From a virus (Duplodnaviria > Heunggongvirae > Uroviricota > Caudoviricetes): DNA of 64,000 nucleotides. The DNA lies in the IMG/VR virus record IMGVR_UViG_3300014208_000001, positions 165,318-229,317 of that record; one strand, written 5' to 3'. The position numbers were made by a program, and so were the translations under genes. Below the pieces are notes generated by a model. The model ran no database searches. It saw only the letters and a program-made list of their open reading frames with translations, and was not told where the DNA came from. Positions 1 to 15,149 of this stretch are shown piece by piece (positions within the stretch are counted from its first letter, which is position 1; every line of letters begins with the position of its first letter).

Positions 1-356
1 GCTGGTTGGCTCATTGGTTGGACACCAACGAGGTTGTCAGCGATTAGCTTGGGGTAGCTTTTGCGGAGCAGTGGTAGGGCAAACCGTGTGAAGTCTGCGA
101 TGTCTGCTGTTGTGGTTTGGGTTTCTGTCAGCAGGCGGCTTTTGCCGTTTGGTGACATGTGGTTGTATTGGTTCTCGAGGATGGCGGCCATTAAACCAAA
201 TTTCTTTGGTTCAATTTCTGGACATTTGGCGAGAACTGGTGACCACTTTTTGACATATTCGTTGCGTTTTGATTCGCTGAATAGTCGTGCTTTGTGGGGG
301 TCGGCGTTGAAGTTTTCTGTTAGCGTTGATTGTCTGGAACTTCTTGTTGGTAACAT
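1..356 (-). CDS. major capsid protein, gp23-like (N-terminal ~118 aa; gene continues past window start)
   Basis: Minus ATG at 356 with an AAAGGGA RBS. Translation MLPTRSS...KKWSPVLAKCPEIEPKKFGLMAAILENQ...RKSYPKLIADNLVGVQPMSQPA matches T4 gp23 NKWKPLLEGEGLPEI...IFENQ...RRAIPNLIAFDICGVQPMNSPTG. Confidence 0.8.
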   Translation of the reverse strand, partial: MLPTRSSRQSTLTENFNADPHKARLFSESKRNEYVKKWSPVLAKCPEIEPKKFGLMAAILENQYNHMSPNGKSRLLTETQTTTADIADFTRFALPLLRKSYPKLIADNLVGVQPMSQP

Positions 357-403
357 TCTGATCCCTTTTATGACCAATTTTTCAGATTATTAGGGTATTG
401 CAA

Positions 404-1042
404 TTAGTCGAGTCCGTCGGCTATTGCGGCGATTGGGTTGCGGTTCTGGTTTTCGAGGATAGTTGGTCTCGTTGATTGGGCCTTTGCGGGCTTATTACGA
501 TTTTGGTCTATTCTCTTTGTTTGACCAGTACCTTCTGTTAGCGTTTTGGCTGGTGTAGCCTTCGATTCATTGAGTTTTCTCTCAATGGTTCGATTACGTT
601 GGAGTGCTTTTTCAGCTAGTGCATTGGCTCTATTAGCCCGTGCGATTGCTGTGTCGCGCTCCTCTTTTAGAGTTGCCATTTGGTCATGCAGGGCTTTAGA
701 ATCCTTATCGCTTTCTCCAATTGTTATGCCCTCTAACGACTGACGTATGTCGCGGAGCTTGGATAGAGCATCGGATTCCTTAAGGGCCGAACTCTTGATG
801 AGTTTTCTTTCGATAGCGGACACTTGGCTCTCAAAGAAGATTTGGACTTTGCGAGCTAGATCACGCTTATGAGTGTCGACTTCTTCGACACAGATTTTTT
901 TGGCTTCTTTGATCTTTTCTTTTAGTTCAAGATCGGCCTGTTCTCTGATATCTTTCCGATACTTTTCTAAACTCTCAACTATTTGAGATGATAAAGTTTC
1001 GGAAACACCAGCTTGTTTGAACAGTTCACGAATCTTTTCCAT
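404..1042 (-). CDS. prohead scaffold/core protein (gp22-like, coiled-coil, K/E-rich)
   Basis: A 212-aa charged, heptad-rich protein lying immediately upstream (on the minus strand) of the gp23-like gene, as gp22 does in T4. Confidence 0.45.
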   Translation of the reverse strand: MEKIRELFKQAGVSETLSSQIVESLEKYRKDIREQADLELKEKIKEAKKICVEEVDTHKRDLARKVQIFFESQVSAIERKLIKSSALKESDALSKLRDIRQSLEGITIGESDKDSKALHDQMATLKEERDTAIARANRANALAEKALQRNRTIERKLNESKATPAKTLTEGTGQTKRIDQNRNKPAKAQSTRPTILENQNRNPIAAIADGLD

Positions 1043-1164
1043 TATACTATCCTTAAGGTAATCGAAGGTTCTGTAATAACTTTGCTGGAGAGCTTATAAT
1101 TTTATTTAATTCTAAATATATATTTGAGCGAATTAAATAATTGTTATTTAATTAAACAATAATG

Positions 1165-1380
1165 CTATTTGCGAATAATAAGATACAATATAAAACATAG
1201 ATATATAACATTAATAACAGGGCAAAAAGCAATAAACAAACAGTACACCAAAACAGTAATGTCGCTAGTAACTATACCATCATTAATCATAGTATCAGCA
1301 TATTGATCAAAAAACATATAGAAATATAAACATGCAATAGCAGCTGGCAATAAGTATGAATAAAATATCATATCGATCAT
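1165..1380 (-). CDS. small 2-TM membrane protein
   Basis: A 71-aa ORF with two hydrophobic segments; no recognisable motif. Confidence 0.3.
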   Translation of the reverse strand: MIDMIFYSYLLPAAIACLYFYMFFDQYADTMINDGIVTSDITVLVYCLFIAFCPVINVIYLCFILYLIIRK

Positions 1381-2154
1381 TTGATTAAACTCTCAAAATT
1401 TCGTATTCCAATCGACATGACAAAAACACAATGGCGCATTTCATTAAATAAAATGATTATTGATGATTTGTGCGAATATTTTCCTGGATTATCTTCTAAT
1501 CCAGAATATTATAATGATTATACATCACGCGAATCAACAGTGACTTTTAAATTACTATGTAAAAACGCTATAGCATTAATGATAGAAATTGAACATATAA
1601 CAGTATCACCACAAGATACTATAAAAGTAACTATCTATGTTGATACCGTATTGGCGTCAAAATATCACAAAAATATTTTGTGCTTTAAATTATTTCACAA
1701 AAGAGCTTTTACTCAAACGCAATATATCAGTAAACAACGTTATGCACATTTCAAATTGAAAACGTATTCATTTACAGAAGCAAGAGAATTCGATGCGACA
1801 ATGTATGATAATTTCTTCGCTATGGCACGTTCTAGAGTTAAATATATGTGTCTTAATATAATGAGTAGTATTAATAATTTGATATTATTACACCACTTGC
1901 TTGAAGAAACCAAGATATTTAGACACGACAATATTGATATATATAACTTATATAAAGATTACTTATCAGAGTATTCATGTGTATTTAAAATACCATATAA
2001 AAATAATACTTATACATTAGATACTTATAGTAATAAAATTAATTTCATAGAAAATATTCAAAAAGGAGAAAATATAGAATTAGTGCGTGATATAATACTA
2101 TACCATCCACCAAAATTATTCAACTTGCTTGATATGTTATTGGAACCAAAATGA
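1381..2154 (+). CDS. hypothetical protein (plus-strand island)
   Basis: A 257-aa ORF, ATGA-coupled to the next plus-strand ORF. Confidence 0.4.
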   Translation: MIKLSKFRIPIDMTKTQWRISLNKMIIDDLCEYFPGLSSNPEYYNDYTSRESTVTFKLLCKNAIALMIEIEHITVSPQDTIKVTIYVDTVLASKYHKNILCFKLFHKRAFTQTQYISKQRYAHFKLKTYSFTEAREFDATMYDNFFAMARSRVKYMCLNIMSSINNLILLHHLLEETKIFRHDNIDIYNLYKDYLSEYSCVFKIPYKNNTYTLDTYSNKINFIENIQKGENIELVRDIILYHPPKLFNLLDMLLEPK

Positions 2155-2579
2155 CTTCATTATGTTGGTTATATGATTGTAAACAAGTAATTCATTACGG
2201 ATTACTACGAACTACAGATGTTAAATTAGATGATTATTTTTCTGGTGTATTAGATATATTAATCGAAAATACGCGGTATGGAATCACATCGTCAACAATG
2301 ATGTTTAGAAACAATGAAATAATTATTTCATTTCAAAATATATCTGAATTATTTAAAATTGAAATTAGAATTACTGCTGCCAAAATCCGTTTAAATATGA
2401 TAAATTCACACACAGATGATACATTAACTAAATTAAATGAAGACATGGTGTATTTTAACAGTGATTTAGCTGTTAAAATTTACAAATGTATCAGATGCAT
2501 AAAATACTTGTATACGGCAGTTGAATCATCTGATAATACTGAATTATTACTTTTAGGAGACAAATTAGAACTATTTTAA
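2151..2579 (+). CDS. hypothetical protein
   Basis: A 142-aa ORF with a 4-nt overlap on the upstream ORF. Confidence 0.35.
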   Translation: MTSLCWLYDCKQVIHYGLLRTTDVKLDDYFSGVLDILIENTRYGITSSTMMFRNNEIIISFQNISELFKIEIRITAAKIRLNMINSHTDDTLTKLNEDMVYFNSDLAVKIYKCIRCIKYLYTAVESSDNTELLLLGDKLELF

Positions 2580-3068
2580 TAGCTCGTATACCCCATATGC
2601 AAAAAATATGCAACACATTGATAACAATGGTATAATATGTATGTATTTTATATTTTTAGAGATATATGCTGCAATAATTTGTAATGTTGCAAACACTGAT
2701 ACACACAATTTTAATAATTCGTTTTGTAATATTGCGCTAAGTATAATAATACAACCTAATAATATGGTTATTATTATAATCATTGCTGCTTTAATGAAGA
2801 AATGATGCCTCTTATTAAATTTTTTATATGCCTCTTTAACAATATCAATGATCGAATCATCAATCAATTCTATTTTATATGGCGCTTTTTCAATTATATC
2901 ATTTATACATGAATAGCTATATGTCTCTGAAATATACAAATATCGTTCATCTACAAGAAATATTATTACAGTACTCCCGTTAAATACTTGTATAAGTTTA
3001 AGCTCACGACCATCATATATTCTGACCTTTTTAAGTTTTAATTCATTTTGTATTATATTTAAGATCAT
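2571..3068 (-). CDS. hypothetical membrane protein (C-terminal TM helices)
   Basis: A 165-aa ORF with a hydrophobic C-terminal third. Confidence 0.35.
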   Translation of the reverse strand: MILNIIQNELKLKKVRIYDGRELKLIQVFNGSTVIIFLVDERYLYISETYSYSCINDIIEKAPYKIELIDDSIIDIVKEAYKKFNKRHHFFIKAAMIIIITILLGCIIILSAILQNELLKLCVSVFATLQIIAAYISKNIKYIHIIPLLSMCCIFFAYGVYELLK

Positions 3069-3463
3069 TGGCTGACCAATGCTATTATTATAAGTAGTGC
3101 TATTTTAATAATCATTTGGATAAAACCAATGATGATTAATACTATTGAAGTATCACGTATTAATTCTACCATACGTGCACAATAATATAAATATTTAATA
3201 ATATTATATCTTCTTTTGGCTTTGTCTAGGATTAATGGATCGTATAAATTTATACCATTATTAAGATAACGGATAGCTTCGACTTCATCTACGTCTTGTT
3301 GCAATCTCTTTATATATAAATTATTTTTATCTGTTATAATGTATATATTATGTTTATCAATTATGAATGATGTTTGCAATTGTGAAGGAAATAGTGTGTA
3401 TACTCCATAAGCATGATATTCAATTCCGATATGATCAGCTATTGCTTCTATTATATCACTCAT
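3065..3463 (-). CDS. hypothetical protein with C-terminal TM anchor
   Basis: A 132-aa ORF with a 4-nt overlap on its neighbour. Confidence 0.35.
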   Translation of the reverse strand: MSDIIEAIADHIGIEYHAYGVYTLFPSQLQTSFIIDKHNIYIITDKNNLYIKRLQQDVDEVEAIRYLNNGINLYDPLILDKAKRRYNIIKYLYYCARMVELIRDTSIVLIIIGFIQMIIKIALLIIIALVSQ

Positions 3464-3626
3464 TGTCTCTTAATACTTTTAGAAATAATTCAGTTCCTTC
3501 TTTACATCTTAGTGATATTGATTTTTGAATATCTTTCTCTTCTGCCGCTTTATCACATTGTTTACATTTCCTAATATGCCATACTAATTGATACATTGGA
3601 GATTTTTCATTATATTCAATTTTCAT
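3456..3626 (-). CDS. small Cys-containing ORF (CxxC, zinc-ribbon-like), unannotated in ORF track
   Basis: A hand-translated 56-aa ORF, MKIEYNEKSPMYQLVWHIRKCKQCDKAAEEKDIQKSISLRCKEGTELFLKVLRDNE, filling the 3464-3615 gap. Confidence 0.25.
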   Translation of the reverse strand: MKIEYNEKSPMYQLVWHIRKCKQCDKAAEEKDIQKSISLRCKEGTELFLKVLRDNE

Positions 3627-3822
3627 TTTCGACGCTTTTGATTTTTAATCTTGCGGTGCCAAGTCTTAAAGCCTCTTCTATTGTTTTAGCCTGACTATTT
3701 GTTAATTTGTATTCTTTTAATGATAATTCTCCTCTAGATAATGGCTTATTTATTTTAACGATTTTGTATATTTTACGTTTCATAAATTGCACCAACACAT
3801 GAACGACATGAATGCGAACCAT
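3616..3822 (-). CDS. hypothetical small basic protein
   Basis: A 68-aa ORF. Confidence 0.3.
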   Translation of the reverse strand: MVRIHVVHVLVQFMKRKIYKIVKINKPLSRGELSLKEYKLTNSQAKTIEEALRLGTARLKIKSVENEN

Positions 3823-4022
3823 AATGTTGTTATCAACATTAACGGAAGCATACCACGCATAGCATCATATGTTCTTTTTGCTTCTTCATCTGGTAAATGT
3901 TCAACGTCCCATATTTTCCTATACAATTTAGGTCTTTTCATAGTAAACATCATTATCATTGTTATTATTGTGAACAACCCTATAAAGATTGCCGTAAAAC
4001 CATTAGCGATAACTGTGATCAT
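3780..4022 (-). CDS. small membrane protein (2 TM)
   Basis: An 80-aa ORF with two hydrophobic helices. Confidence 0.3.
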   Translation of the reverse strand: MITVIANGFTAIFIGLFTIITMIMMFTMKRPKLYRKIWDVEHLPDEEAKRTYDAMRGMLPLMLITTLWFAFMSFMCWCNL

Positions 4023-4318
4023 AAATTTCCTACATTGTTAATGTAATCAACTGCTTCGTCGGCACATACGCCACACATACTCTCTGAATATCCTTCAACA
4101 GTATATAATGTTCTCGTCAACATTGAGCATTCACATTCATGAAATCCATATTCATCGACTAGTAAATCGACTATAGCATCTTTCATCACTACGCCAACTG
4201 CCATATCCAAATCGTCTGATGTGATAGTATCATCTATATCGTTAATAAATTCTTCAAATTGGCTCTTTGTGAAATTTATTGATAATGTGACTATTCCTTG
4301 TCTTGCTCTTTTAGGCAT
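4019..4318 (-). CDS. acidic Cys-containing hypothetical protein
   Basis: A 99-aa ORF with ECECS...CGVC, overlapping the DUF433 gene. Confidence 0.35.
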   Translation of the reverse strand: MPKRARQGIVTLSINFTKSQFEEFINDIDDTITSDDLDMAVGVVMKDAIVDLLVDEYGFHECECSMLTRTLYTVEGYSESMCGVCADEAVDYINNVGNL

Positions 4319-4563
4319 CTGATAATCTCCTGTTTGTTCTTGTTGCTGTACTTTATCGCGTCATTAATTTGAGATATTGTCAAAAATGGGTAACATTCTA
4401 ATATTTCATTAACTGATAGTCCCAATATTTTATACTTATAAATCACCCAAACTGGTATACGAGTACCTTTAATTGTGGCATCACCGCCACAGACTCCTTT
4501 AATATGTGTTATTGCCATTTTACGTATCTCAAATTTTTGAAATATAAACAATACCGCAAGCAA
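4291..4563 (-). CDS. DUF433 domain protein
   Basis: GVCGGDATIKGTRIPVWVIYKYKILGLSVNEILECYPFLTISQINDAIKYS matches the DUF433 consensus (G.P.I.GTRI.V...L..G.S.EEIL..YP.LT...I..AL.Y). Confidence 0.5.
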   Translation of the reverse strand: MLAVLFIFQKFEIRKMAITHIKGVCGGDATIKGTRIPVWVIYKYKILGLSVNEILECYPFLTISQINDAIKYSNKNKQEIIRCLKEQDKE

Positions 4564-4576
4564 ATGGAGAGTATTT

Positions 4577-5023
4577 ATGACAAGTTTGTTTTATTCAACA
4601 AACCGCGATAAAGATGATATAATATGGCCGATTATAGATATGTTCGCTGAAAAAGCACGCAAATCAAATGTTACAATATCTGTCGATATAAACGATTCAA
4701 AACATATCGCTATCATATTTGATTACGGTTATAGAATTAAAATATACACCGAATTAGATAATGATGGTACAGTTCTAACACCTGTTTATAGTATTTTAAA
4801 ATCATATACATTATTGAAATTCCAAAATAGCACTTTAAAATTGCGAGCACAAACAAATAGCATATTAGATATCAATGAAAATACTGTTAATAATATAATT
4901 GATGGTTCTTTATTGCATATCGAAGCATGGACTATGTTAGATCAATTACCTATACATGACCTTAAAGAGACAGTAAATTTTATGTTTAATTTATCGAATG
5001 ATATAACACAAGATCCGTTCTAG
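4577..5023 (+). CDS. hypothetical protein
   Basis: A 148-aa plus-strand ORF convergent with the QueC-like gene. Confidence 0.4.
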   Translation: MTSLFYSTNRDKDDIIWPIIDMFAEKARKSNVTISVDINDSKHIAIIFDYGYRIKIYTELDNDGTVLTPVYSILKSYTLLKFQNSTLKLRAQTNSILDINENTVNNIIDGSLLHIEAWTMLDQLPIHDLKETVNFMFNLSNDITQDPF

Positions 5024-5664
5024 ACAATCTCATTATCTATAGCTGTTTTCGCTATACTATTTGTTATACATGGTACACATTTTTTACAATTTTTACCATT
5101 GACTGGGTTTTCGCACCACCAAACTTTATTGTGTAATTTGTATGATTTTAAATTTTTTAATATGTCATATTTATGTTGCCATTCTAATGGTGCTATTAAT
5201 TTACCAGTACCGCCTCTAATTTTTTGCATATTGTCGAACATAGCATATATTTCATGCTTATAATGCCATACGCAATCGCCATGTATATATCCAACATATA
5301 AATCTTCATATGGTCTGAGATAATTCACTGCTATTGGCAACCATATCAGTGGTTGCGATAATCCATTATTTTCGCCTATACATACGTTGCCATTGTCTGA
5401 TGCTATGGTAACTTCGAAATTATGAAAAGTCCATTTAAGTCTATTGGTATATTTTATGAATTTATTACGCGCTAATTTATTTTCTTCTGCCGCGTTAATT
5501 CGGTCATGTATTATTGATATTGTTGATACTGTTTGATGAGGTTCTAATTTATGATTACCTCTTGTAACATATTGATCATATAATAATGTGTATAATAAAT
5601 ATGTTGAATCACAACCACCTGACCATAACACTAGCATTTTGATGCGCTCCTTTGAACGCATCAA
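5020..5664 (-). CDS. queC: QueC-like PP-loop ATPase (7-cyano-7-deazaguanine synthase family)
   Basis: N-terminal SGGxDS PP-loop (VLWSGGCDSTYLL). C-terminal 4-Cys zinc motif CENPVNGKNCKKCVPC, like QueC CxxC..CxxC. Confidence 0.5.
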   Translation of the reverse strand: MMRSKERIKMLVLWSGGCDSTYLLYTLLYDQYVTRGNHKLEPHQTVSTISIIHDRINAAEENKLARNKFIKYTNRLKWTFHNFEVTIASDNGNVCIGENNGLSQPLIWLPIAVNYLRPYEDLYVGYIHGDCVWHYKHEIYAMFDNMQKIRGGTGKLIAPLEWQHKYDILKNLKSYKLHNKVWWCENPVNGKNCKKCVPCITNSIAKTAIDNEIV

Positions 5665-5674
5665 ATACAGTCAA

Positions 5675-6388
5675 TTACGAATTAAAATATTTTTTGATTT
5701 CGTCAACTAACATACTTTCATAAACCACTTTTTCAAATTGTGGTTTAATTTTTGATTTTTCATTCTTTTTGGCGAATCTATCTTTAACTGATTCTTTAAT
5801 GTGCATTATCGCGCTGCGGACGCTCGGCTCTGATACCGCGTCCCAAGTGACGAAAGTATACCCTGGTAACACTCTATATGTTTCGTGGCCATGTGCTTCG
5901 ACCATTTCCATATCACCGACGCCGCGAGATGAGATCCCAACTCTTACTTTATGCTCGAACAATCCTTTGAGCATAGCCCCACATGGCATTCTATCTAGTA
6001 CTTCGGCTTCGCCATAGACTTTGCGGCCTTCTACCCAAATATTTGTGATTAAGTGGCTTATTCTATCCATGTGAATTTTGGCGTCTGCTGGATGGTCTAA
6101 TTCGCCAACTACTGCTCGTTGTGCGACATCTTCTCTGATATCATTGACAGCGGGTACTAATACTTCTTTAGTTGGGTAGACTCTTCCATTAGCGTTTTCT
6201 TTATCACCTTCTTGAAATATACCGGTTATTTTTAGAACATTGGCACCGTTCATACTTTCTTTTATTATTTTGGTTTCTAATGGTTGAAAGACAAATGTAT
6301 CCCTAATCATTTGCATACCAGTTGGTATTTCGCCTGTTTCAGCGATTAATCCACGATTGATAATTATTTGTGATCGTGTTGGAAGCAT
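5675..6388 (-). CDS. prohead core protease, gp21-like
   Basis: NGRVYP...GELDHP...GISSRG motifs reminiscent of T4 gp21 (S77 family). Sits in the head-morphogenesis neighbourhood. Confidence 0.55.
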   Translation of the reverse strand: MLPTRSQIIINRGLIAETGEIPTGMQMIRDTFVFQPLETKIIKESMNGANVLKITGIFQEGDKENANGRVYPTKEVLVPAVNDIREDVAQRAVVGELDHPADAKIHMDRISHLITNIWVEGRKVYGEAEVLDRMPCGAMLKGLFEHKVRVGISSRGVGDMEMVEAHGHETYRVLPGYTFVTWDAVSEPSVRSAIMHIKESVKDRFAKKNEKSKIKPQFEKVVYESMLVDEIKKYFNS

Positions 6389-6430
6389 AAAATTCCTTTC
6401 GTGATAATTTATATTTGCCTATATTTTTAT

Positions 6431-6970
6431 TTAAATTAATGATATTTTCTTTTTAGTACCATTTTTATTAGAGAAAGTCAATTCATCGAATTTATATTCT
6501 TTGCCAATCAATTTATGTAATGTGATATATTTACTACCTAGTCCTGGCTTTACATATGCTAAAGTTAAGTGAGGTTTATACACATATTTATTTGTTACTT
6601 CTGTTGAATCATTAATTAATTTATTTAATTTACATAGATCTTTACTTGTTACTTCTATTTTAACAACATCATTCTCATTAGATTTAAACAATGATATTTT
6701 GCCAAGTTTGATTTTGATGGGTCCGAATTTTTTGACAATATCTGATATGATACTAGAATTACTTGTATGTATTCCGTATAATACAGTTATATGAAAATCA
6801 GTTTCTTTGCCATCCGCTGCTAAATCATCGTCGTCTATATTATCGACTAATTTTTGTAATTCTTTGATTGGATTATCTATTGATATATCTGACATATCAA
6901 CTTGTGTACTACTATAATCATACTTACTCTCGGTTATTGCTTGTAATTTCATACAATATTTTCTCATCAA
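6431..6970 (-). CDS. 2H phosphoesterase superfamily protein (LigT-like)
   Basis: Two H-x-T/S-x motifs, HITVLY and HLTLAY, spaced about 90 aa apart. Confidence 0.45.
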   Translation of the reverse strand: MMRKYCMKLQAITESKYDYSSTQVDMSDISIDNPIKELQKLVDNIDDDDLAADGKETDFHITVLYGIHTSNSSIISDIVKKFGPIKIKLGKISLFKSNENDVVKIEVTSKDLCKLNKLINDSTEVTNKYVYKPHLTLAYVKPGLGSKYITLHKLIGKEYKFDELTFSNKNGTKKKISLI

Positions 6971-7337
6971 GACTATTCGATTGTGGTGCTGTTAATCCAA
7001 AAAGCAATTCTAAAAATTTGCTTACACCACTACATACACAAAATTTAACTCCAGAAACATATTTATATTTAAATATTAATAATATCTTATCGAAAATTTC
7101 AGGATCATTGTATGATATATAATATTCCATATATCCTCTACGAAACCAATGATAATATACTCCTGATATTCTAACCGAGTCACTACCGCATAGAATACAA
7201 ATATTATTAGCATATATCATATATTTATAGAATCGTTCATAGTACTGATCATGTACTTTAACATCATAATTATTACTTTTTAATTCTTCTGCTATTAAAT
7301 GTAACATATCAAAATTCATCGGTAGTATTAATCCCAC
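6924..7337 (-). CDS. hypothetical protein
   Basis: A 137-aa ORF. It overlaps the downstream gene by 47 nt unless that gene starts at an internal Met. Confidence 0.35.
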   Translation of the reverse strand: MGLILPMNFDMLHLIAEELKSNNYDVKVHDQYYERFYKYMIYANNICILCGSDSVRISGVYYHWFRRGYMEYYISYNDPEIFDKILLIFKYKYVSGVKFCVCSGVSKFLELLFGLTAPQSNSLDEKILYEITSNNRE

Positions 7338-7677
7338 TTATATGCCCGATAAATATAACCACTTTAATCATTAAAGCGATTGGAAAAAACAACATCATTG
7401 GTATGAACCATTTATTTCGTAATCGATATTTATATATAAATTTATCTATTTCGCTAAATATATCATCATGGTATTTCACATCAATATATCCATGCGCTCG
7501 ATCCCAAAACCATGTTATCGTTTCATATTTCATTCTTAAATAATCATTTTTAATTATTAACGTTATATTATAAACAATGATTCTATTACACACATCGCAT
7601 TCACATTGGTTATTACACGTGACCCTATACTTTTTTTCTATAAGAAAATCAATTATTGCTGATTTCATAATATTCAT
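7309..7677 (-). CDS. hypothetical protein, CxxC x2 plus C-terminal TM
   Basis: CNNQCECDVCNR motif, then a hydrophobic tail. Confidence 0.35.
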   Translation of the reverse strand: MNIMKSAIIDFLIEKKYRVTCNNQCECDVCNRIIVYNITLIIKNDYLRMKYETITWFWDRAHGYIDVKYHDDIFSEIDKFIYKYRLRNKWFIPMMLFFPIALMIKVVIFIGHISGINTTDEF

Positions 7678-8213
7678 ATATCACCACTACTCACATTTTG
7701 AAGTATATTAATCAAATAGTCATTAAATCTATTGGCTTTGTTTAACAATATTGTTAATATAGCGTGGGCCATATAAATAAATATAGTAACTATAGCAACA
7801 ATACTTAATAAAGAGATCATTATGGCTGTCATACTCATTCCGGCAATAAACATTATAGTATTGATTAATACATTATTTGTGGTACCGCATACTTTTTTAA
7901 AAGCGTATATGATAAGCAACATTTTATGCTTACATATAAAATTGAGTATTTTACTATCAAATTCTATATCAGTATATTCAATACATTCACTAGTTTGTGT
8001 TAAGTCTCCATTAATAAATTTAATATTGAAGGCGTTAATCATTATAAAATTAGGCTCAATATCTATTGATATATTATTTATTCTAAAATGCTGCTTATAT
8101 CCAACACTTATTACATTATTTATGCTACGTACTGGCCAACCGCTAGTTTTTGGTTCATAAATTATTTTGTTTTCATTTAATAAGTGTTCAATTATTTCAT
8201 GTATTTGAGCCAT
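7674..8213 (-). CDS. hypothetical protein with C-terminal TM helices
   Basis: A 179-aa ORF. Confidence 0.35.
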   Translation of the reverse strand: MAQIHEIIEHLLNENKIIYEPKTSGWPVRSINNVISVGYKQHFRINNISIDIEPNFIMINAFNIKFINGDLTQTSECIEYTDIEFDSKILNFICKHKMLLIIYAFKKVCGTTNNVLINTIMFIAGMSMTAIMISLLSIVAIVTIFIYMAHAILTILLNKANRFNDYLINILQNVSSGDI

Positions 8214-8248
8214 ACTGTGTGTTTCTTTTGAATATCAATACGTAAACG

Positions 8249-8275
8249 CCAACAGCCCCGAATAGGGGCTGTTGG
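8249..8275 (-). terminator. 11-bp perfect hairpin (ccaacagcccc-gaata-ggggctgttgg) just downstream of the large acidic gene
   Basis: Read directly from the sequence. No clear U-tract on either strand. Confidence 0.35.
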
Positions 8276-8297
8276 GCATTCGAGGTTACAATTTCAA

Positions 8298-11219
8298 TTA
8301 CTTATTTTTCTTGCCTGCTGGCTTATGTTTGGTACCAGTCCCATCATCTTGTTTTGGGCTTGTGCCAATACCTTCGAGTTCTTCTCTCGACCCATCAACT
8401 TTTGATTTTGCCGGGTCTGATCTTTTATCTTCATCAGCGTGTGATGTGTATTTCTTATTGCTTGGATCGGTCATATCACGATCTTCAGCCAATCCATCAT
8501 CTTCATCATCAAAATCAGGCATTTCTGATTCTTCTGAATCATCCTCAATCGGATTCACAGTGTCAACCGGCTTCATATCGCCTTCGACACCTTCAATATC
8601 ACCTTCAACGTCAGCGACGTCACCTTCGATAGCTTCTTCGTCATCTTCAAGCGATTCAACATCACCTTCTAACTCATCGCCTTCAATACCTAATTCATCT
8701 TCACCTTCAAGATCGCCACCGAATGGTTCTTCACCACCCATCATCTCATCTTCTGGTTCTGTAATAACTTGATCACCGTCGCTGTCGACATTGACGTCAC
8801 CGTCGACACTTACACTTATTGTTCCATCACTACTGGCTGTGATTGTGGCCACAGCTTCATCTAGTAATGCACGATCTTCTTCTGTCAGAGGAGCTAATTG
8901 CTCCAAATTTTCTGATAACCAATCACAGAATGGTTGGGCATCAGCTTTAGTGACTCCAGCGGCAGCTAATGCTGACTTTCTTAGCATTTTTGGCACTGGG
9001 ACACTAATATCACCGCTTTCATTCATAACTATGGCGTCGACATTAGCCGATGGAATACCATGGTCTAGAATAAAATTGACACCATTAGCGGTACCAGCAA
9101 CACCATCTTTTTGTCTAGTTGTCCACTGAATATCTTCAGAAGTCAACTTCTCAGACAATTTATTTATTGAAGACCGCTTATAGCCAGCCTTCTTAATTTT
9201 TGGGCTCTTGTATTGGTCTTCAACGACGCCCTCATTGCCAAATTCGGCATCGTTATCACAAGAGCCATCATCGCAATCTTCGTCTTCATCGTCATCATTT
9301 TCCCAAGGTTTCCCGCTCTCCATGAAAGCTTTAGAAACTTGTTCAATGGCGAAGAATGCTTTATTAGCTGGAATTGTCACTCCAACAGCTTCTATAGCCG
9401 CTTTGGATAATTCCGTCAAATTCTCATTTATTGTTGAACCATTTATATCGTTCTCTTCAGCTAATCGACCCATCATGGTGATGATTTTGGTCAATATTTT
9501 CTTATCGGTGATGACTGGCTTGCCATAATCAAACATCTGGCGAGCTTTTGTTTGTTTAAATGCATATGGGTCAAATGATTCGCCTAGTCCTTCGTCATTT
9601 CCAAACTCGGCATTGCCTGTCTGACCGCCACCAGCGCCACCTTGTAGCATATCTGGTCCGCCACCTTCTCCAAGGTCGAATTCACCAGTATCATCGATAC
9701 CCTCATCGTCATCGATATCTAGATCATCGCCAGCGAAATCGTCTTCACCACCGCCGCCACTGGTTCCACCTATTTGAATCAATGGTGAGTTGATCACAAT
9801 TTGTGGTGGCTTATCTTCATGGTCATCACCACCTAAATCTAGATCTTCGCTAGCATCGTCATTGCCCATGTCGATGTCTTTGGCGAAATTGTCGTCACCT
9901 GGGATCGCATCGAAATCTTTGAGATTTTCATTAGCCGACAACTCTTCTTGAATTGTAGCAATTAAATCTTCTGCTTCATAAATCGATGCGTCATCGAATG
10001 CTGGTTCTCTTAATCTTGTGATTAAGTCATTTAATCTCGATGATAGATCATGCGATTCTTTAATTCTTGGCGTTCTATTTTTCAGAACGTCAAGTGTCGT
10101 GGCTAGTGCTTCTGCAGTAACTTCACGGTTCGAGATAGCTTCGAAGATCATTTCAAGGAATCTATCATATGCACCGTTAAAATCAGATGCACCACTTAAT
10201 TTATCGACATTTTCAAGTAACGTGGCATGTTCAGAAGCGATAGCTATTTTCCGCCATTCTCTGACTATTGTGTTCTTATTGACTTTCAAGTTAGTCTTAT
10301 ATAGTAGTGATGCGGTATTTTTAGCCAGATCTTCGTTAAAGCATGCTTTAGTGGCTAGGGCATTTCCGACTAATGTATCGATTTCACTTCTTTTCAGAAG
10401 TGTAAATTCCTCATTTTCTTTCAGGAATGGTCCGACTAATTTAATTGCTTCTTCTATTTTATTGTCATAAATCAACTGTGCGGTTTCGTATATTCTGTTT
10501 TGGAAACCGGTTGATTTATATGCTTCTTTTGCAGCTTCTTTCATGTGTTTGCCAATGAGCTTCTTTGAGGCCCATTTGGTAACTGGCAGCTTGATTGGTT
10601 TTCCATCATTGAATGAGCATGATAGTGTACCACCATGTTCAACAATGACTTTATTATTCAGTGACTCGACGATGTATTGAACGATTTTTTCTTTTGCTTC
10701 TGCGGAGACAGCTTGGCCACCACTGACTTTGATTTTTCTGGCAACGCCATCTCTGGTTCTGACAATACCATGTTCTGGTATTATTTTGCCAGAGAATCTC
10801 TGGCTTGCTATTTTGTCAAATGCCGATGACATACCATTTTGATTATTACTTTCTATGGCATCTATTAATTGTAGACATGAACTTTCGAATAGTGATTGTT
10901 TTTCTTCTTCTATAATTTCTATTTTGACTATATTCTCGATTACGACTCGACCGCCTTTTTCACGGCGGAAATCTGCCTTGTAATAGTCATTTGTGTCAAC
11001 ATCTTCGATGAAGAGGTCACCACCGTACTGTTGATCGCGATTAATCTGCTTTAATCTGAAAGAGGCAAGTTTCCAATTCTTGCCTATTGAAGATCCCATT
11101 TCTGAGATCTTGCTTTCAAACAGAGCTTTTTTAGCGTCAACAGATTCATTGATACTAGCCAGAAACTTACGGGAATCCATTCTAGTTGGATTCACCACCG
11201 TGTTCTGATTCTTAGCCAT
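8298..11219 (-). CDS. large (~974 aa) highly acidic protein with Gly/Asp-rich disordered segments (candidate internal head/prohead core protein)
   Basis: The likely start is the internal Met at 11219, with an AAGGAG RBS 9 nt upstream. The ORF track's start at 11381 overlaps the divergent sigma gene. Has long DDxDLGGDD / EGDxEG runs. Confidence 0.55.
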   Translation of the reverse strand: MAKNQNTVVNPTRMDSRKFLASINESVDAKKALFESKISEMGSSIGKNWKLASFRLKQINRDQQYGGDLFIEDVDTNDYYKADFRREKGGRVVIENIVKIEIIEEEKQSLFESSCLQLIDAIESNNQNGMSSAFDKIASQRFSGKIIPEHGIVRTRDGVARKIKVSGGQAVSAEAKEKIVQYIVESLNNKVIVEHGGTLSCSFNDGKPIKLPVTKWASKKLIGKHMKEAAKEAYKSTGFQNRIYETAQLIYDNKIEEAIKLVGPFLKENEEFTLLKRSEIDTLVGNALATKACFNEDLAKNTASLLYKTNLKVNKNTIVREWRKIAIASEHATLLENVDKLSGASDFNGAYDRFLEMIFEAISNREVTAEALATTLDVLKNRTPRIKESHDLSSRLNDLITRLREPAFDDASIYEAEDLIATIQEELSANENLKDFDAIPGDDNFAKDIDMGNDDASEDLDLGGDDHEDKPPQIVINSPLIQIGGTSGGGGEDDFAGDDLDIDDDEGIDDTGEFDLGEGGGPDMLQGGAGGGQTGNAEFGNDEGLGESFDPYAFKQTKARQMFDYGKPVITDKKILTKIITMMGRLAEENDINGSTINENLTELSKAAIEAVGVTIPANKAFFAIEQVSKAFMESGKPWENDDDEDEDCDDGSCDNDAEFGNEGVVEDQYKSPKIKKAGYKRSSINKLSEKLTSEDIQWTTRQKDGVAGTANGVNFILDHGIPSANVDAIVMNESGDISVPVPKMLRKSALAAAGVTKADAQPFCDWLSENLEQLAPLTEEDRALLDEAVATITASSDGTISVSVDGDVNVDSDGDQVITEPEDEMMGGEEPFGGDLEGEDELGIEGDELEGDVESLEDDEEAIEGDVADVEGDIEGVEGDMKPVDTVNPIEDDSEESEMPDFDDEDDGLAEDRDMTDPSNKKYTSHADEDKRSDPAKSKVDGSREELEGIGTSPKQDDGTGTKHKPAGKKNK

Positions 11220-11266: not shown

Positions 11267-12316
11267 ATGGAACGTACTCTAATGAATCCATCATACATAA
11301 TTTATGGTGATTACAATCGTAATAACGGGTCAATGCTACTACGTAAAATACGTTCCTATGCCAGATTTGAAACAGACCCATATTATTTGGCTAAAGTAAA
11401 ACAAGCAGTAGCAGAACGAGTATATTTGGACGATGACTCAACTTTCGACGCGATAATAAAGTATCAAAATGGTGATATATCACAATTAGACCCATTGTTC
11501 AAAGCATATCATTTATTAATATTAAAATTATCAGCGGGCGCATTACGAATATACAAAAAACGAGGCCAAATAGACGAAATACTATCATTATCATATTCTA
11601 CATTCTTAACATGCTTAAAAAAATACACAGTATCTGAAAAATTAAGCAGATTTTCAACATATCTATCAACAGCAATATTACATAATATAATACATTATAT
11701 ACCATTTGAACACACCAGAATACGTTATAGAATACAACACATATCAGCTTTGGATAATATAATATTAAATGATTTATCTATAAATCCAAATCAATCTATA
11801 CACGATATATTACCAGATGATACTATTAAGAAATATTGGAAACATATTAATTATTTGACAATTGTAAACGTCTACAAACAAAATCACATACCAATTAAAG
11901 TGTCAGACCAACCATTAATGCATATTGATATTGATGAGTGCTTTAAAAATTTAAATGATAGACAAAAAAGAATATTAACACGCAGATTAAATGGAGATAT
12001 ATTGCATGATATAGGTATTGATGAAAATATCACCAGAGAAAGAGTGCGTCAAATAGAGGCACAAGCATTATCAAAAATCAAAAAAATTATCGAAAGCCAA
12101 AATAGATTACCAATTAAACCGATTAAATTACCTGAAAAACAACAAGTCATACTGTTAACATATGATGAAGCTAAAAAATTTATAAAATTACATTATATAA
12201 AATCTAGAGCCGCATATATACGCTTTGCAAGAATATGTGTACAATTACCTTTAAACCCACGTTCAACTTATAAGCATTCATGGAAAGGTTGGAAATCATT
12301 CTTATCTAGGAGGTAA
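11267..12316 (+). CDS. sigma-70 family RNA polymerase sigma factor with C-terminal extension
   Basis: Region 4.2 HTH LNDRQKRILTRRLNGDILHDIGIDENITRERVRQIEAQALSKIKK. Region 2-like YKKRGQIDEILSLSYSTFLTCLKKY. Confidence 0.6.
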   Translation: MERTLMNPSYIIYGDYNRNNGSMLLRKIRSYARFETDPYYLAKVKQAVAERVYLDDDSTFDAIIKYQNGDISQLDPLFKAYHLLILKLSAGALRIYKKRGQIDEILSLSYSTFLTCLKKYTVSEKLSRFSTYLSTAILHNIIHYIPFEHTRIRYRIQHISALDNIILNDLSINPNQSIHDILPDDTIKKYWKHINYLTIVNVYKQNHIPIKVSDQPLMHIDIDECFKNLNDRQKRILTRRLNGDILHDIGIDENITRERVRQIEAQALSKIKKIIESQNRLPIKPIKLPEKQQVILLTYDEAKKFIKLHYIKSRAAYIRFARICVQLPLNPRSTYKHSWKGWKSFLSRR

Positions 12317-14152
12317 ATCATATATAGTTATCTCTGAATCATCAGCATTTTCATAATTTGCTAATTCTTCTGATATAAGCGCTTTAGCGATATTTTTAGC
12401 GCCATTAGCTTCTTCAATATCAATAGTTGATTCAATCAGCACTAATGGGTCAGAATTAGTACCATAATTCGAATCATTAATATTATTACCCTTAGACAAT
12501 GCATCTAATTCATTTATAGTCATAAAATAATCGAATCCACTATTCAGTTCGCGTTCATTTAATTTCTCTAATATCTTCTTGCTACGTAATCTTTTATCTA
12601 TACGCATCTCATTGATTACACGTTTTTCACTTGCGTAATCATATCCTTCTAACGGTGGTTCAGTATCTTCTTCAGCATCAGGTGCTAATAAATCATTATC
12701 TTGCCCTGGAATTTCGGGTGTTTCATCATCCATACCAAGATCTAATCCTCCTAAACCGCCTCCACCGCCACTGGGTGCCATAGATTCGGCTTCAACATCT
12801 TTTAAATCTTCGATTTCATCCGGGGACAAGTCAGTGAAGTGTGTGACAATCCAATCTTTGGGGAACCATCCAAGATCTTTAAGAGTCGCCATGACATCAG
12901 CTCTTGTTTGCCATGTCTCAATTCGATATAATTCTTCGAGAGCTGATGTGGCTGTTAATGTGATTTCAAATCCTTTTAGATCTTCAACAGAATAACCACG
13001 TAGTGCTAAATGAACCAGCGCGACTTTAGTTAATCCTTTTGCCACTTCTCTCTGAATCCATTGTACTGCTTTTGCAAACTCAGCGTGGCTCTGTGATAAT
13101 GATTTTTCATTCTGTTCACCAGCGCCTTCTCCTAGTCCAACTCTGGCAAATGGAATCTTAAGAGGTGCTATCATTTTCTTTTTGAAATATTCGATATCCG
13201 CTATTTGATCTAAATTTTCGGCTCCTGGTAACGAATCAACATCAGGGCCAGTACCATCAGCTCTTACAGGTAAAAAATAATCATCTTCTTGAATAAGAGG
13301 TGAATATCGCTCGTCAAATGTACCGGTCGTTGGGTTATAGAATCTCTGTCTTTTCATAGTCCTTGCAATAGCTGCTATATATTCAGGTATTTGATTAGTT
13401 GGTATATTACCAACTGGTATTTTGAATTTCCTTCTCTCAGGTGCTCTAGTAATACGATATATCAATGCACTATCTTCCATTAATCGCAATTGTTTAAATG
13501 CTTTACGTCCACCATCTAATATACTAATACCATATGGGTGATATATATTTTCAAATGAGGTTAATCTAGTATGCATCACTTGCCATGGATGCATGAATAT
13601 TGGCTCTGGGTATATTGGATCTTGATAATAAAATCCAACCAAATCACCAAATCTTGTTTCAATTCTTGTAAAATTATAGATATTCATAAATCTTAAACTT
13701 GATACACATGTTCTGTTTTCATTTGGTATTATTTCAGCGCCAAAATCGCCATATTTACATAAATATCTAATTGTGGGTCTACAATGTGTGTCCCACTGTA
13801 GAGTGTTAAAAAATAATTCTTCTAATTCTCTTTTTAATCGTTTATTTCTTGCTCTTATTATTATTGTGTGCTTGCGTTCTGAATCAACTAAACTAGCTTC
13901 GTCAGCATATAAATCTAATGCTAAACTAATTTCACCTGTTTGTGCCATTAGTTCATAATCTCTATACCTTTCTAATCTATTTATTTGAACATTGGTTTGA
14001 TCTAGAATGGATTGTTGATCCAAATCTAAATTGCCAGTATGGGCAATTCGATCAAGTTGAGTTTGGTCTTGTAATGTTCTTTCTGATTGAAATATATTAT
14101 GATTTTTAATCAGAGTTCGAACACGATCAAACACAAACCAATTGCTGGGCAT
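12302..14152 (-). CDS. portal vertex protein, gp20-like
   Basis: LIYRITRAPERR...DSLPGAENLDQI aligns with T4 gp20 VIYRITRAPDRR...DTLPGADNTGNM. AGGAG RBS. Confidence 0.9.
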   Translation of the reverse strand: MPSNWFVFDRVRTLIKNHNIFQSERTLQDQTQLDRIAHTGNLDLDQQSILDQTNVQINRLERYRDYELMAQTGEISLALDLYADEASLVDSERKHTIIIRARNKRLKRELEELFFNTLQWDTHCRPTIRYLCKYGDFGAEIIPNENRTCVSSLRFMNIYNFTRIETRFGDLVGFYYQDPIYPEPIFMHPWQVMHTRLTSFENIYHPYGISILDGGRKAFKQLRLMEDSALIYRITRAPERRKFKIPVGNIPTNQIPEYIAAIARTMKRQRFYNPTTGTFDERYSPLIQEDDYFLPVRADGTGPDVDSLPGAENLDQIADIEYFKKKMIAPLKIPFARVGLGEGAGEQNEKSLSQSHAEFAKAVQWIQREVAKGLTKVALVHLALRGYSVEDLKGFEITLTATSALEELYRIETWQTRADVMATLKDLGWFPKDWIVTHFTDLSPDEIEDLKDVEAESMAPSGGGGGLGGLDLGMDDETPEIPGQDNDLLAPDAEEDTEPPLEGYDYASEKRVINEMRIDKRLRSKKILEKLNERELNSGFDYFMTINELDALSKGNNINDSNYGTNSDPLVLIESTIDIEEANGAKNIAKALISEELANYENADDSEITIYDLPPR

Positions 14153-14190: not shown

Positions 14191-14730
14191 ATGAATAGAT
14201 TCATCAAATTGTCTGATTTAGTAAAATTTATCGCTGATATTATAAAATACTTATCACGTAAAAAACCAATCCCCCCAGAACCAAAACCAATTCCAACCCC
14301 GGAACCACCTCCAAAGCCAACCCCAATTCCACCTCCAGAGCCAACCCCAGAACCCACGCCTAAAACACCAACCGAATTAGCGATTGATCAATTATTATCA
14401 TCACACAATAAACTACGGCAGACACCATTAACCATTAATACTAAATTAACGGCAGCAGCTCAAAAACATGCCGAATGGATGGCGTTTAATAATACATTAT
14501 CGCATGTCGGTGATAAAAGATCACAGCCATGGACAAGAACATCATGGGAAGGCTATGAAAATGGATTCGTTGGTGAAAATATCGCATTCGCTTACTCATT
14601 AGACCAAGTGATGCCAATGTGGTTACAATCACAAGGACATAGAAGAAATATTTTAGATTCTAATTATAAAAACATAGGAATAGGTATTAAAAATAATTAC
14701 TATTGTGTTGTATTTGGAGGTGGTGATTAA
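14191..14730 (+). CDS. CAP/SCP (PR-1, YkwD-like) domain protein with Pro/Thr/Glu-rich linker
   Basis: HN..R, GENIAFAYS and GHRRNIL..NYKNIGIGI motifs, plus a PEPKPIPTPEPPPKPTP linker. Confidence 0.6.
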   Translation: MNRFIKLSDLVKFIADIIKYLSRKKPIPPEPKPIPTPEPPPKPTPIPPPEPTPEPTPKTPTELAIDQLLSSHNKLRQTPLTINTKLTAAAQKHAEWMAFNNTLSHVGDKRSQPWTRTSWEGYENGFVGENIAFAYSLDQVMPMWLQSQGHRRNILDSNYKNIGIGIKNNYYCVVFGGGD

Positions 14731-15149
14731 TTAGAAGTCCATTCAGATTCTATTTTTTTATTAGACAATTGATTAAATTGATTAAATTCATCCTCACATA
14801 AATTAAATTCTATATGCCTTTTATCAATATATCTAACATTGGACATCACAACCATATCAACCATACAATAATATAATACATACGTGCCATTTAAATCTTT
14901 ACCAGACAATTCACAATATATTGATTGAGTCGGCTTAAAATTTTTTATCAATCTATTCTTTATTTCTTCTCCGCAATTTTCACAACAATCGATACTTTTA
15001 ATAATACGTTCTAATAATATTGATCTTATTTCTGGCTTATGATTTACAACATTTACTTTTCTAAAATCCATTGAATAATATGTAAATTGCGATTTAACCT
15101 CTATTTTACACAAGTCACATACTATTCCATCTTTTGATTTATTAAGCAT
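14727..15149 (-). CDS. Cys-rich hypothetical protein (CxxC ... CCxxC)
   Basis: A 140-aa ORF coupled to the terminase stop. Confidence 0.4.
   Translation of the reverse strand: MLNKSKDGIVCDLCKIEVKSQFTYYSMDFRKVNVVNHKPEIRSILLERIIKSIDCCENCGEEIKNRLIKNFKPTQSIYCELSGKDLNGTYVLYYCMVDMVVMSNVRYIDKRHIEFNLCEDEFNQFNQLSNKKIESEWTSN

Follow-up and report, generated by a model that had tools for sequence, protein, structure and literature searches.

A probable accessory-gene island with piecemeal turnover at the prohead protease/scaffold junction of an uncultured jumbo phage

Two described kinds of loci come closest to the element reported here. The hyperplastic (plastic-periphery) regions of T4-superfamily phages, reportedly described by Comeau et al. 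2007 and Arbiol et al. 2010, consist of small, AT-rich, fast-evolving ORFan genes that are clustered between core genes, often code for membrane proteins, vary from one close relative to the next and overlap at their start and stop codons; the morons of lambdoid phages, said to go back to Juhala, Hendrix et al., are extra genes, dispensable for the core function, that stand between two genes adjacent in relatives. The interval 1165-5664 of a 64,000-nucleotide (nt) stretch of the IMG/VR record IMGVR_UViG_3300014208_000001 (positions 165,318 to 229,317; the whole stretch is referred to as the window) resembles both in these respects, and we consider it probable that it represents a lineage-specific, fast-evolving accessory-gene island, turned over piecemeal at a hot spot between the prohead protease and scaffold genes. 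It departs from the hyperplastic regions by lying inside the head-gene block, where it directly flanks the prohead protease gene, by belonging to a phage that is only distantly T4-like, and by having no repeated promoter-plus-stem-loop cassettes; single hairpins are found instead at two upstream boundaries. Unlike a lambdoid moron, it is a 12-gene block on two strands that does not look like a single unit with its own promoter and terminator, and its codon-level composition is not foreign.

The window derives from an uncultured phage of jumbo size (~356 kb; full contig ERZ27249449 k141_213174) whose head module is of the T4 type. The initial annotation had counted 11 small open reading frames (ORFs) on both strands of the interval; both strands are indeed used, and the number of ORFs between the S77 protease gene and the scaffold gene is 12, nine of them on the minus and three on the plus strand, together covering ~97% of the interval. 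They are given below with their flanks (aa, amino acids; GC3, GC fraction at third codon positions; HMM, hidden Markov model); substitutions refer to L004, a variant strain with 99.4% identity that served as comparator for substitutions and indels.

5675-6388, minus strand: prohead protease gene, gp21-like, family S77 (Pfam Peptidase_S77, 4.5e-20), identical in three assemblies
5638-5665, minus strand: RNA hairpin between the protease stop and the QueC-like start (-16.9 kcal/mol, z -4.9; 0/200 shuffles fold as well)
5020-5637, minus strand: stand-alone divergent QueC-like PP-loop ATPase, 205 aa (PHROG 1550, 1.9e-19)
4577-5023, plus strand: 148-aa acidic protein, GGAG ribosome-binding site, opposite in strand
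4291-4518, minus strand: 75-aa DUF433 (COG2442) protein (Pfam DUF433, 63.4 bits)
4019-4318, minus strand: 99-aa acidic protein, isoelectric point 4.1, CxC...CxxC; 2 synonymous, 0 non-synonymous
3780-4022, minus strand: 80-aa protein, two predicted transmembrane segments; GC3 0.37, above the island average
3616-3783, minus strand: 55-aa basic protein; the ORF extends to 3822 (68 aa)
3456-3626, minus strand: 56-aa basic protein with a CxxC pair, intact in L004
3065-3463, minus strand: 132-aa protein with a predicted C-terminal transmembrane anchor; ATGA overlap with the next gene
2571-3068, minus strand: 165-aa protein, soluble N-terminal part and two predicted C-terminal transmembrane segments
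2151-2579, plus strand: 142-aa protein; ATGA overlap with the 245-aa gene; synonymous to non-synonymous 3:1
1417-2154, plus strand: 245-aa ORFan on the strand that does not carry the head genes; its frame is open back to a TTG at 1381
1165-1380, minus strand: 71-aa acidic protein, two predicted transmembrane segments; 2 synonymous, 0 non-synonymous; no HMM match
1043-1164, minus strand: spacer upstream of the scaffold gene, 122 bp
404-1042, minus strand: scaffold gene in the gp22 position (tblastn, 29-51% identity, ~40 related loci listed)

The genes are tightly packed. The ATGA overlaps mentioned in the initial annotation were seen at four junctions (the start at 3783 of the 55-aa gene creates such an overlap with its upstream gene), and two plus/minus pairs overlap tail to tail, the 165-aa and 142-aa genes by 9 nt and the 148-aa and QueC-like genes by 4 nt. 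From the protease stop codon to the upper edge of the island there are 38 nt, and its lower edge is separated from the scaffold start codon by 122 nt. Because all twelve ORFs are intact in L004, because both indels that separate the two strains within the island (9 and 39 bp) are multiples of three, because substitutions in the island ORFs are mostly synonymous (~24 synonymous versus ~8 non-synonymous, plus-strand ORFs included), and because the ORFs are longer (55-245 codons) than expected by chance (a stop is expected about every 12 codons at 27% GC, as estimated from base composition), the twelve ORFs are, as judged from these sequence comparisons, real genes under purifying selection. The same tendency is seen in individual genes: synonymous to non-synonymous substitutions stand at 3:1 in the 245-aa ORF, and the 165-aa gene has 3 synonymous and 0 non-synonymous changes besides an in-frame 9-bp insertion in L004. 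The 148-aa protein has 161 residues in L004 through a 13-aa in-frame insertion; these 39 bp (at window position 5011/5012) contain GTACCA three times and add the residues YHFDDVPVPVPED near the C-terminus. Strain-to-strain substitutions amount to 7.3 per kb in the island versus ~2.5 per kb in the flanking core genes.

The evidence that carries our reading comes from the same junction in relatives. Protease similarity (31-64%) led to at least 82 loci in viral and metagenome collections, and ~60 of the listed loci belong to the same clade, with capsid proteins 62-81% identical to that of the window. The junction is tight in at least 29 loci, with a protease-to-scaffold gap below 300 bp and mostly of 50-120 bp; in locus L002 it is likewise tight when read directly from the ORFs. 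It is filled in at least 15 loci, with gaps of 1.0-4.9 kb and at least 9 non-homologous sets of cargo. The tight arrangement is the majority state among the loci listed, across a clade that spans 35-66% GC, and many loci also have the acidic-protein gene directly next to the protease gene. None of the island proteins has a homologue in the 82 related loci listed. The tight junction is thus the common state among these loci, and the site was filled independently many times. The initial annotation had described the interval as an insertion that splits gp21 from gp22/gp23, with T4 as the reference. The contiguity of these genes is borne out by most relatives; T4 itself is unsuitable as a yardstick because the capsid protein is at most 37% identical to that of any GenBank phage.

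Much closer relatives, with proteases 77-81% identical to that of the window, were recovered by a protein search (samples SRR14932583, ERR14949448 and GCA_054403495.1). One of them, L091 (4.4 kb), has the order acidic-protein gene (72% identity), 2H phosphoesterase gene (52%), protease gene (81%), a 2.6-kb island, and scaffold gene (72%). Its island comprises six genes, all on the opposite strand, one of which encodes a 2-oxoglutarate-Fe(II) (2OG-Fe(II)) oxygenase; only a single gene is homologous between the two islands, a 148-aa protein in L091 that is 25.5% identical over 141 aa to the 142-aa protein of the window (E 3.6e-10; z 16.5 against shuffles). L093 (80% protease identity) has yet another opposite-strand gene abutting the protease gene. 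Because this 81% relative also carries an island at the junction, an island at this position predates the split of these lineages; and the different L091 island, with one gene homologous, points to a long-lived hypervariable locus with turnover and not to one insertion. The synteny comparison proposed in the initial annotation thus gave a divided answer to the question whether close relatives share exactly this arrangement: strains at 99.4% identity do, whereas the 81% relative has a different gene set.

Other observations were made at this junction and in its protease gene. A protein of ~500 aa with an N-terminal helix-turn-helix (HTH) domain, a REase_MTES_1575-like nuclease domain and a Mom-family GNAT domain is encoded at the protease/scaffold junction in three lineages (L022, 1721-3283; L023, 3331-4905; L042, 10743-12236), with 33-63% mutual identity and once alongside two methyltransferase genes; its appearance is that of a selfish gene of the homing type, with an architecture unfamiliar to us. 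In L002, the protease is encoded by one uninterrupted ORF of 386 aa (9974-11134), in which ~150 aa inserted after the DHP motif resemble an intein. The protease match is also longer in L058, L059 and L060, covering ~1.8 kb rather than 0.7 kb.

The boundaries of the island are conspicuous in base composition, with GC falling from 43-47% to 24-31%; overall, island GC is low, at 25-31%. The GC3 values of its genes (0.14-0.26) are like those of ordinary genes of this phage, such as the portal gene (0.20) and a large intein-containing gene (0.20), and it is the capsid, scaffold, protease and acidic-protein genes that are outliers (0.32-0.41). The remaining GC difference resides in the first and second codon positions and reflects the AT-rich amino-acid usage of the ORFans. 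Low GC is consequently not a foreign signature here, because the GC3 of the island equals the genome background, and recent horizontal transfer, as it might be read from low GC, was rejected on this result. Within the island, the block 3780-4518 (the 80-aa, 99-aa and DUF433 genes) has a GC content of 0.34-0.35 and a GC3 of 0.26-0.37, compared with 0.25-0.28 and 0.14-0.25 in its neighbors. It may be a more recent addition, and its higher values suggest that the island was assembled in more than one step.

We found no nuclease, integrase or transposase among the island ORFs in four HMM libraries, namely Pfam, PHROGs, NCBIfam and PADLOC (the 55/68-aa and 56-aa ORFs were scanned with Pfam only). 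No direct or inverted repeat pair and no target-site duplication brackets 1165-5664. The designation of the interval as a mobile moron cassette finds no footing in these data: neither a mobility gene nor flanking repeats were found, and promoter-like sites occur at the shuffled level.

The most informative cargo protein is the QueC-like enzyme, which the initial annotation had correctly recognized (Pfam 6e-6 and PADLOC QueC 8e-6, next to the PHROG 1550 match). QueC is defined by an SGGxDS motif, a zinc motif and the catalytic YxQxHxxE, VPxRN and YPDC motifs (PMC13329287); Cap9 and QatC are its defense paralogues, and Cap9 retains YxQxHxxE, VPxRN and YPDC (PMC13329287). The window gene most likely starts with the ATG at 5637 (MLVLWSGG...), giving 205 aa, whereas the ORF up to the TTG at 5664 would give 214 aa. 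Its GGAG ribosome-binding site sits in the 3' arm of the hairpin 5638-5665, which may have a role in termination or translational control. Among ~20 metagenomic homologues with 32-41% identity, the SGGCDS PP-loop and C184/C193/C196/C199 (C-x8-C-x2-C-x2-C) are invariant in 20 family members; the family alignment does not contain the YxQxHxxE, VPxRN and YPDC motifs, and QPxxW, EDLxxGY..D...H and PxEWxxK are conserved in their stead. The curated QueC model TIGR00364 scores 13.7 bits against a cut-off of 150.3, and the Pfam QueC match is limited to residues 153-201. With a profile of the family, QueC structures are hit at 2e-6 and 5e-5, and Cap9 is hit at 3e-3. The predicted structure (predicted local distance difference test, pLDDT, 88) has Cap9 as its closest solved structure (E 6e-8; template-modelling (TM) scores 0.59/0.69), followed by QueC, and also resembles many jumbo-phage proteins annotated as QueC.

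The window protein hence shares with canonical QueC, Cap9 and QatC the PP-loop SGGxDS, the C-x8-C-x2-C-x2-C zinc motif and the QueC-family fold, but it lacks the YxQxHxxE, VPxRN and YPDC motifs of canonical QueC and Cap9, and their partner genes were not found next to it. Within the part of the 356-kb genome that was covered, the island showed no queD, queE, folE or DpdA/TGT gene, and neither did the surroundings of five homologues; in these five contexts the QueC-like gene stands alone among small or replication genes. The resemblance to Cap9 of the type IV cyclic-oligonucleotide-based anti-phage signaling system (CBASS) is structural only; no CD-NTase domain occurs among the neighboring genes, and the QueC-type substrate motifs are absent. 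QatC of the QatABCD system has ~400 aa with N- and C-terminal extensions and is encoded next to qatA, qatB and qatD, whereas the window protein, with its 205-214 aa, has no such extensions and no ATPase or TatD neighbor. Its nearest counterparts are jumbo-phage proteins of PHROG 1550 (Bacillus phage SP-15 gp114 and Pseudomonas phage PS119XW gp244; 26-29% identity over ~90% of the length), which are of the same size class and equally stand-alone, with no queD, queE, folE or tgt gene nearby; in many jumbo phages, among them SP-15, PS119XW, Noxifer and RSF1, this enzyme family is found by itself. The window protein differs from them by its membership in a separate metagenomic subgroup (32-41% identity) and by its site in the head module. 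It falls in an uncharacterized phage family (PHROG 1550) and is distinct from canonical QueC, Cap9 and QatC.

The DUF433 protein named in the initial annotation is a secure assignment (63.4 bits against a Pfam cut-off of 23.6; 1.7e-17). Domains of this type (DUF433/COG2442) are known as the antitoxin partners of PIN toxins (PMC3834315, PMC2701414). The gene heads a seven-gene minus-strand run with overlapping junctions, and the 58-bp divergent region 4519-4576 between it and the 148-aa gene holds the palindrome TCAAAttTTTGA. Its closest genomic homologues (39-54% identity) stem from Planctomycetales, Methanophagales, Prochloron and Thermotogae, and some of them are immediately followed by a gene for ~115 aa, which we read as that of the partner toxin; tblastn against GenBank phages gave no match. 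The window protein has the typical size of the domain in PIN-COG2442 toxin-antitoxin pairs, but it is solitary: no PIN hit was obtained among its neighbors, and no partner toxin was found because the 99-aa protein encoded downstream is an ORFan with no PIN or DUF5615 hit. From its sequence and surroundings, it is a solitary antitoxin-like, putative DNA binder.

The remaining cargo consists of small proteins. Four predicted membrane proteins, each with 1-2 transmembrane segments, correspond to the several membrane peptides that had been noticed before, and the Cys-rich acidic protein of the initial annotation is that of 99 aa (isoelectric point 4.1), with its four cysteines arranged as CxC...CxxC. 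The proposed HMM search of the membrane peptides for holin, Imm and Sp superinfection-exclusion families was run, and nothing matched in the libraries scanned (Pfam and PHROGs, at E up to 0.05-0.1). Two unannotated genes were followed in depth, and both are ORFans: the 99-aa protein found only itself in a word-indexed search of 5.8 billion proteins, and so did the 245-aa protein in an exhaustive phmmer search of 1.84 billion representative proteins. The latter has no tblastn match in GenBank phages either, and its AlphaFold single-sequence model (pLDDT 37) is unusable for a fold search. For the 142-aa protein, too, tblastn against GenBank phages gave no match.

A second AT-rich island lies on the other side of the protease gene, between it and the acidic-protein gene.

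8298-11219, minus strand: gene of an acidic protein of ~1000 aa
8244-8281, minus strand: GC-rich RNA hairpin (-26.6 kcal/mol, z -5.5; no shuffle folds as well)
6431-8213, minus strand: second AT-rich island
6924-7337 (137 aa), 7309-7677 (122 aa) and a further gene (179 aa), minus strand: three small genes beyond the phosphoesterase gene
6431-6952, minus strand: 2H/LigT-like phosphoesterase, 173-179 aa, two HxT motifs

Its GC content is 24-29%. The phosphoesterase has a weak match to the anti-CBASS family Acb1 in Pfam (1.2e-3, below the cut-off), and general LigT models score better; the gene is kept next to the protease gene in the 77-81% relatives, with 43-52% identity. The three small genes are absent from L091, and the 122- and 179-aa proteins have one predicted transmembrane segment each. 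The 137-aa ORF shows 2 synonymous and 8 non-synonymous substitutions between the 99.4% strains, the opposite of the pattern of all other ORFs in the region, which would point either to diversifying or relaxed selection or to a miscalled frame. The hairpins 8244-8281 and 5638-5665 directly follow the acidic-protein and protease genes, and each forms the upstream edge of an AT-rich island.

We compared the island proteins all against all (BLAST, and Smith-Waterman with shuffles), and general paralogy among them was dropped as an explanation, as a single notable pair emerged, namely the 99-aa protein and the 122-aa protein of the second island; the three plus-strand genes have no mutual similarity by either method. 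The likeness in this pair, which covers ~30 residues (MKxAIxDxL...CEC, z 6.3 against shuffles), is between residues 44-71 of the 99-aa protein and the N-terminal end of its 122-aa partner (7309-7677), and it hints at the exchange of gene fragments between the two islands. A possible module of ~90 aa, with 'IIxDHL' at its N-terminus and 'YxDxE[IL]FDK[IL]' at its C-terminus, sometimes followed by membrane segments, was seen by eye in up to five window proteins (2571-3463, 6924-8213) and in three L091 proteins (2981-4055). An HMM built from the L091 trio ranked the 137-aa ORF of the window first (E 0.0056 among 304 ORFs) and the 122-aa protein second (E 0.36), with the rest not significant, and iteration never recovered the two island members at 2571-3463; such a shared module is suggestive only.

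How did such a locus come about? As the comparison of loci shows, the junction is usually a spacer of ~100 bp among the loci listed for the wider clade, and many lineages filled it independently with unrelated genes. In the sub-clade of the window phage, an island has been kept, with its genes swapped, rearranged and changed in sequence much more quickly than the head genes on either side. The site probably tolerates insertions because the scaffold gene kept its own expression signal: the 122-bp spacer retains a TCAAATATATA element (~1117-1127) that resembles the CAAA(A/T)ATA element found in relatives 25-35 nt upstream of the scaffold gene (16 spacers compared). This element may act as a late promoter, so that head-gene expression would continue uninterrupted. 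The island was probably assembled in several events and not as one mobile cassette. Its cargo most likely serves host takeover, anti-defense or exclusion rather than head assembly, a role that we infer from the types of genes, including the phosphoesterase of the sister island with its weak Acb1 match. The DUF433 protein could regulate its seven-gene run or neutralize a host PIN toxin, the QueC-like protein would be a stand-alone ATP-pyrophosphatase with a remodeled substrate pocket, and four small membrane proteins and several acidic or basic ORFans would make up the rest.

Several points weigh against this interpretation. Eight of the nine minus-strand genes are co-oriented with the late head genes, and the QueC-like start lies only 38 nt past the protease stop; the island genes may be co-transcribed with the head genes and might even have a role related to the virion. 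Sigma-70-type promoters did not stand out in 300-8400 (61 promoter-like sites versus 61.6 expected from shuffles). Ten of the twelve genes have no informative homologue, and only short contigs are known for the 77-81% relatives.

Among the competing explanations, we regard it as unlikely that both islands together form a specific anti-defense locus, in which the 2H phosphoesterase would degrade cyclic-nucleotide immune signals, the DUF433 protein would neutralize host PIN toxins, and the QueC-like enzyme would disturb deazaguanine-dependent immunity (type IV CBASS, Qat) or supply deazaguanine for phage DNA. The two HxT motifs and the Acb1 match (1.2e-3) of the phosphoesterase fit this idea, but the match stays under the Pfam cut-off and general LigT models score higher. 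Also in keeping with it, Cap9 from type IV CBASS ranks first among solved structures for the QueC-like model (E 6e-8), although the TM-score is only 0.59-0.69 and the substrate motifs of Cap9 and QueC are missing from the family alignment. The DUF433 protein belongs to the antitoxin family of PIN toxins (PMC3834315, PMC2701414), and such pairs occur in the bacterial loci L099 and L104; PADLOC, however, gave no confident hit besides QueC. Still more improbable is the narrower proposal that the QueC-like enzyme of such a two-island locus is a counter-measure against, or a mimic of, the protein deazaguanylation that was recently discovered in type IV CBASS and QatABCD; such an enzyme might cap or compete for the N-terminus of an immune protein, or consume 7-carboxy-7-deazaguanine.

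We hold it for improbable that the interval arrived in one event as a single mobile cassette, be it a strict moron or the cargo of a homing endonuclease. Its clean edges (38 and 122 nt from the adjoining protease stop and scaffold start, respectively), the strong hairpin at its upper boundary and the selfish-looking ~500-aa HTH/REase/Mom-like ORF at the same junction in other lineages would all suit such an event; yet the island has no nuclease, integrase or transposase in the four HMM libraries, terminal direct or inverted repeats were not found, GC3 is at the genome background with a heterogeneous internal composition, and the different island of L091, with one gene in common, points to piecemeal turnover. 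The block is, moreover, absent from large collections, and megablast of window positions 1-8300 against GenBank phages returned zero DNA matches. There is, in our view, very little chance that the genes are ancestral head-assembly genes (for extra prohead core, internal or membrane-anchoring proteins) lost in other lineages. Most of them run with the head genes and are packed tightly against them, and some other lineages hold large acidic proteins at the junction that are possibly head proteins; but the cargo is non-homologous between lineages, the tight junction is the majority state among the listed loci of a clade of 35-66% GC, three island genes lie on the opposite strand, and heads do not typically contain an enzyme, an HTH protein of the antitoxin type or small membrane proteins. 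An assembly chimera, to which the sharp GC change at both boundaries might point, can practically be dismissed: the first 16.4 kb of the window are 100% identical to two metagenomic contigs of 355,685 bp and 355,863 bp (ENA, JGI), and a 25.9-kb contig of a third data set (Logan), representing the 99.4% variant, is 99.3-99.5% identical to this part with the same gene order. The accessory-gene island with piecemeal turnover thus stays the reading we favor. The initial annotation was broadly right in seeing accessory genes here; what the data replace is the mobile moron cassette, in favor of a variable island with turnover.

The head-gene block around the two islands comprises Portal_T4 (PF07230), Peptidase_S77 and Gp23 (PF07068) genes, ordered as portal ... 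protease, scaffold, capsid. It is distant from cultured phages: against GenBank, identity does not exceed 36% for the protease and 37% for the capsid protein. The scaffold gene (404-1042) has no Pfam match; it owes its name to its tblastn partners, which are the ORF between the protease and capsid genes in related loci, and it is 72% identical to a partial ORF in L091. The Gp23-family capsid gene comes after it. Further genes of the module lie beyond the acidic-protein gene.

12302-14152, minus strand: portal gene (Portal_T4)
11267-12316, plus strand: sigma-70 region-4 domain gene, between the portal and acidic-protein genes

A CAP-domain protein gene (14191-14730, plus strand) lies on the far side of the portal gene as seen from the acidic-protein gene; it and the sigma-70 region-4 domain gene (11267-12316) are two plus-strand genes embedded in the head module opposite to the head genes. 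A 1455-aa ORF (15149-19516, minus strand) with Intein_splicing and LAGLIDADG_3 domains (precomputed Pfam hits) is another selfish element in the structural region. A scan of the whole window revealed no Rfam family and no tRNA.

In the spacers, an 18-nt motif, TTAAATAAAA(T/A)TATA(A/G)GC, has only two copies in the 64 kb, both on the minus strand: 1092-1109, 49 nt upstream of the scaffold start codon, and 6417-6434, 28 nt upstream of the protease start codon. For an AT-rich palindrome (1140-1163), the predicted fold is no more stable than that of shuffled sequence. The terminator scan of 300-8400 performed no better than shuffles and placed none at the lower end of the island, and a general late-promoter motif, SCAAAWATAW, was dropped as it is rarer than chance in the window.

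The interval is an ordinary variable region of a phage genome and not a new kind of system, and it leaves the understanding of phage genomes unchanged. It does correct a common inference: the sharp GC drop does not mark foreign DNA here but results from third-position GC enrichment in the highly expressed head genes, combined with AT-rich amino-acid usage in the ORFans. At the same time, it shows by example at which sites a jumbo phage can accommodate new genes, with the short spacers that flank the prohead protease gene being refilled repeatedly throughout an uncultured clade. Hot spots of this kind offer a practical starting point in the search for host-takeover and anti-defense genes, and the stand-alone QueC-like family of jumbo phages merits experiments, as relatives of QueC modify proteins in bacterial immunity.

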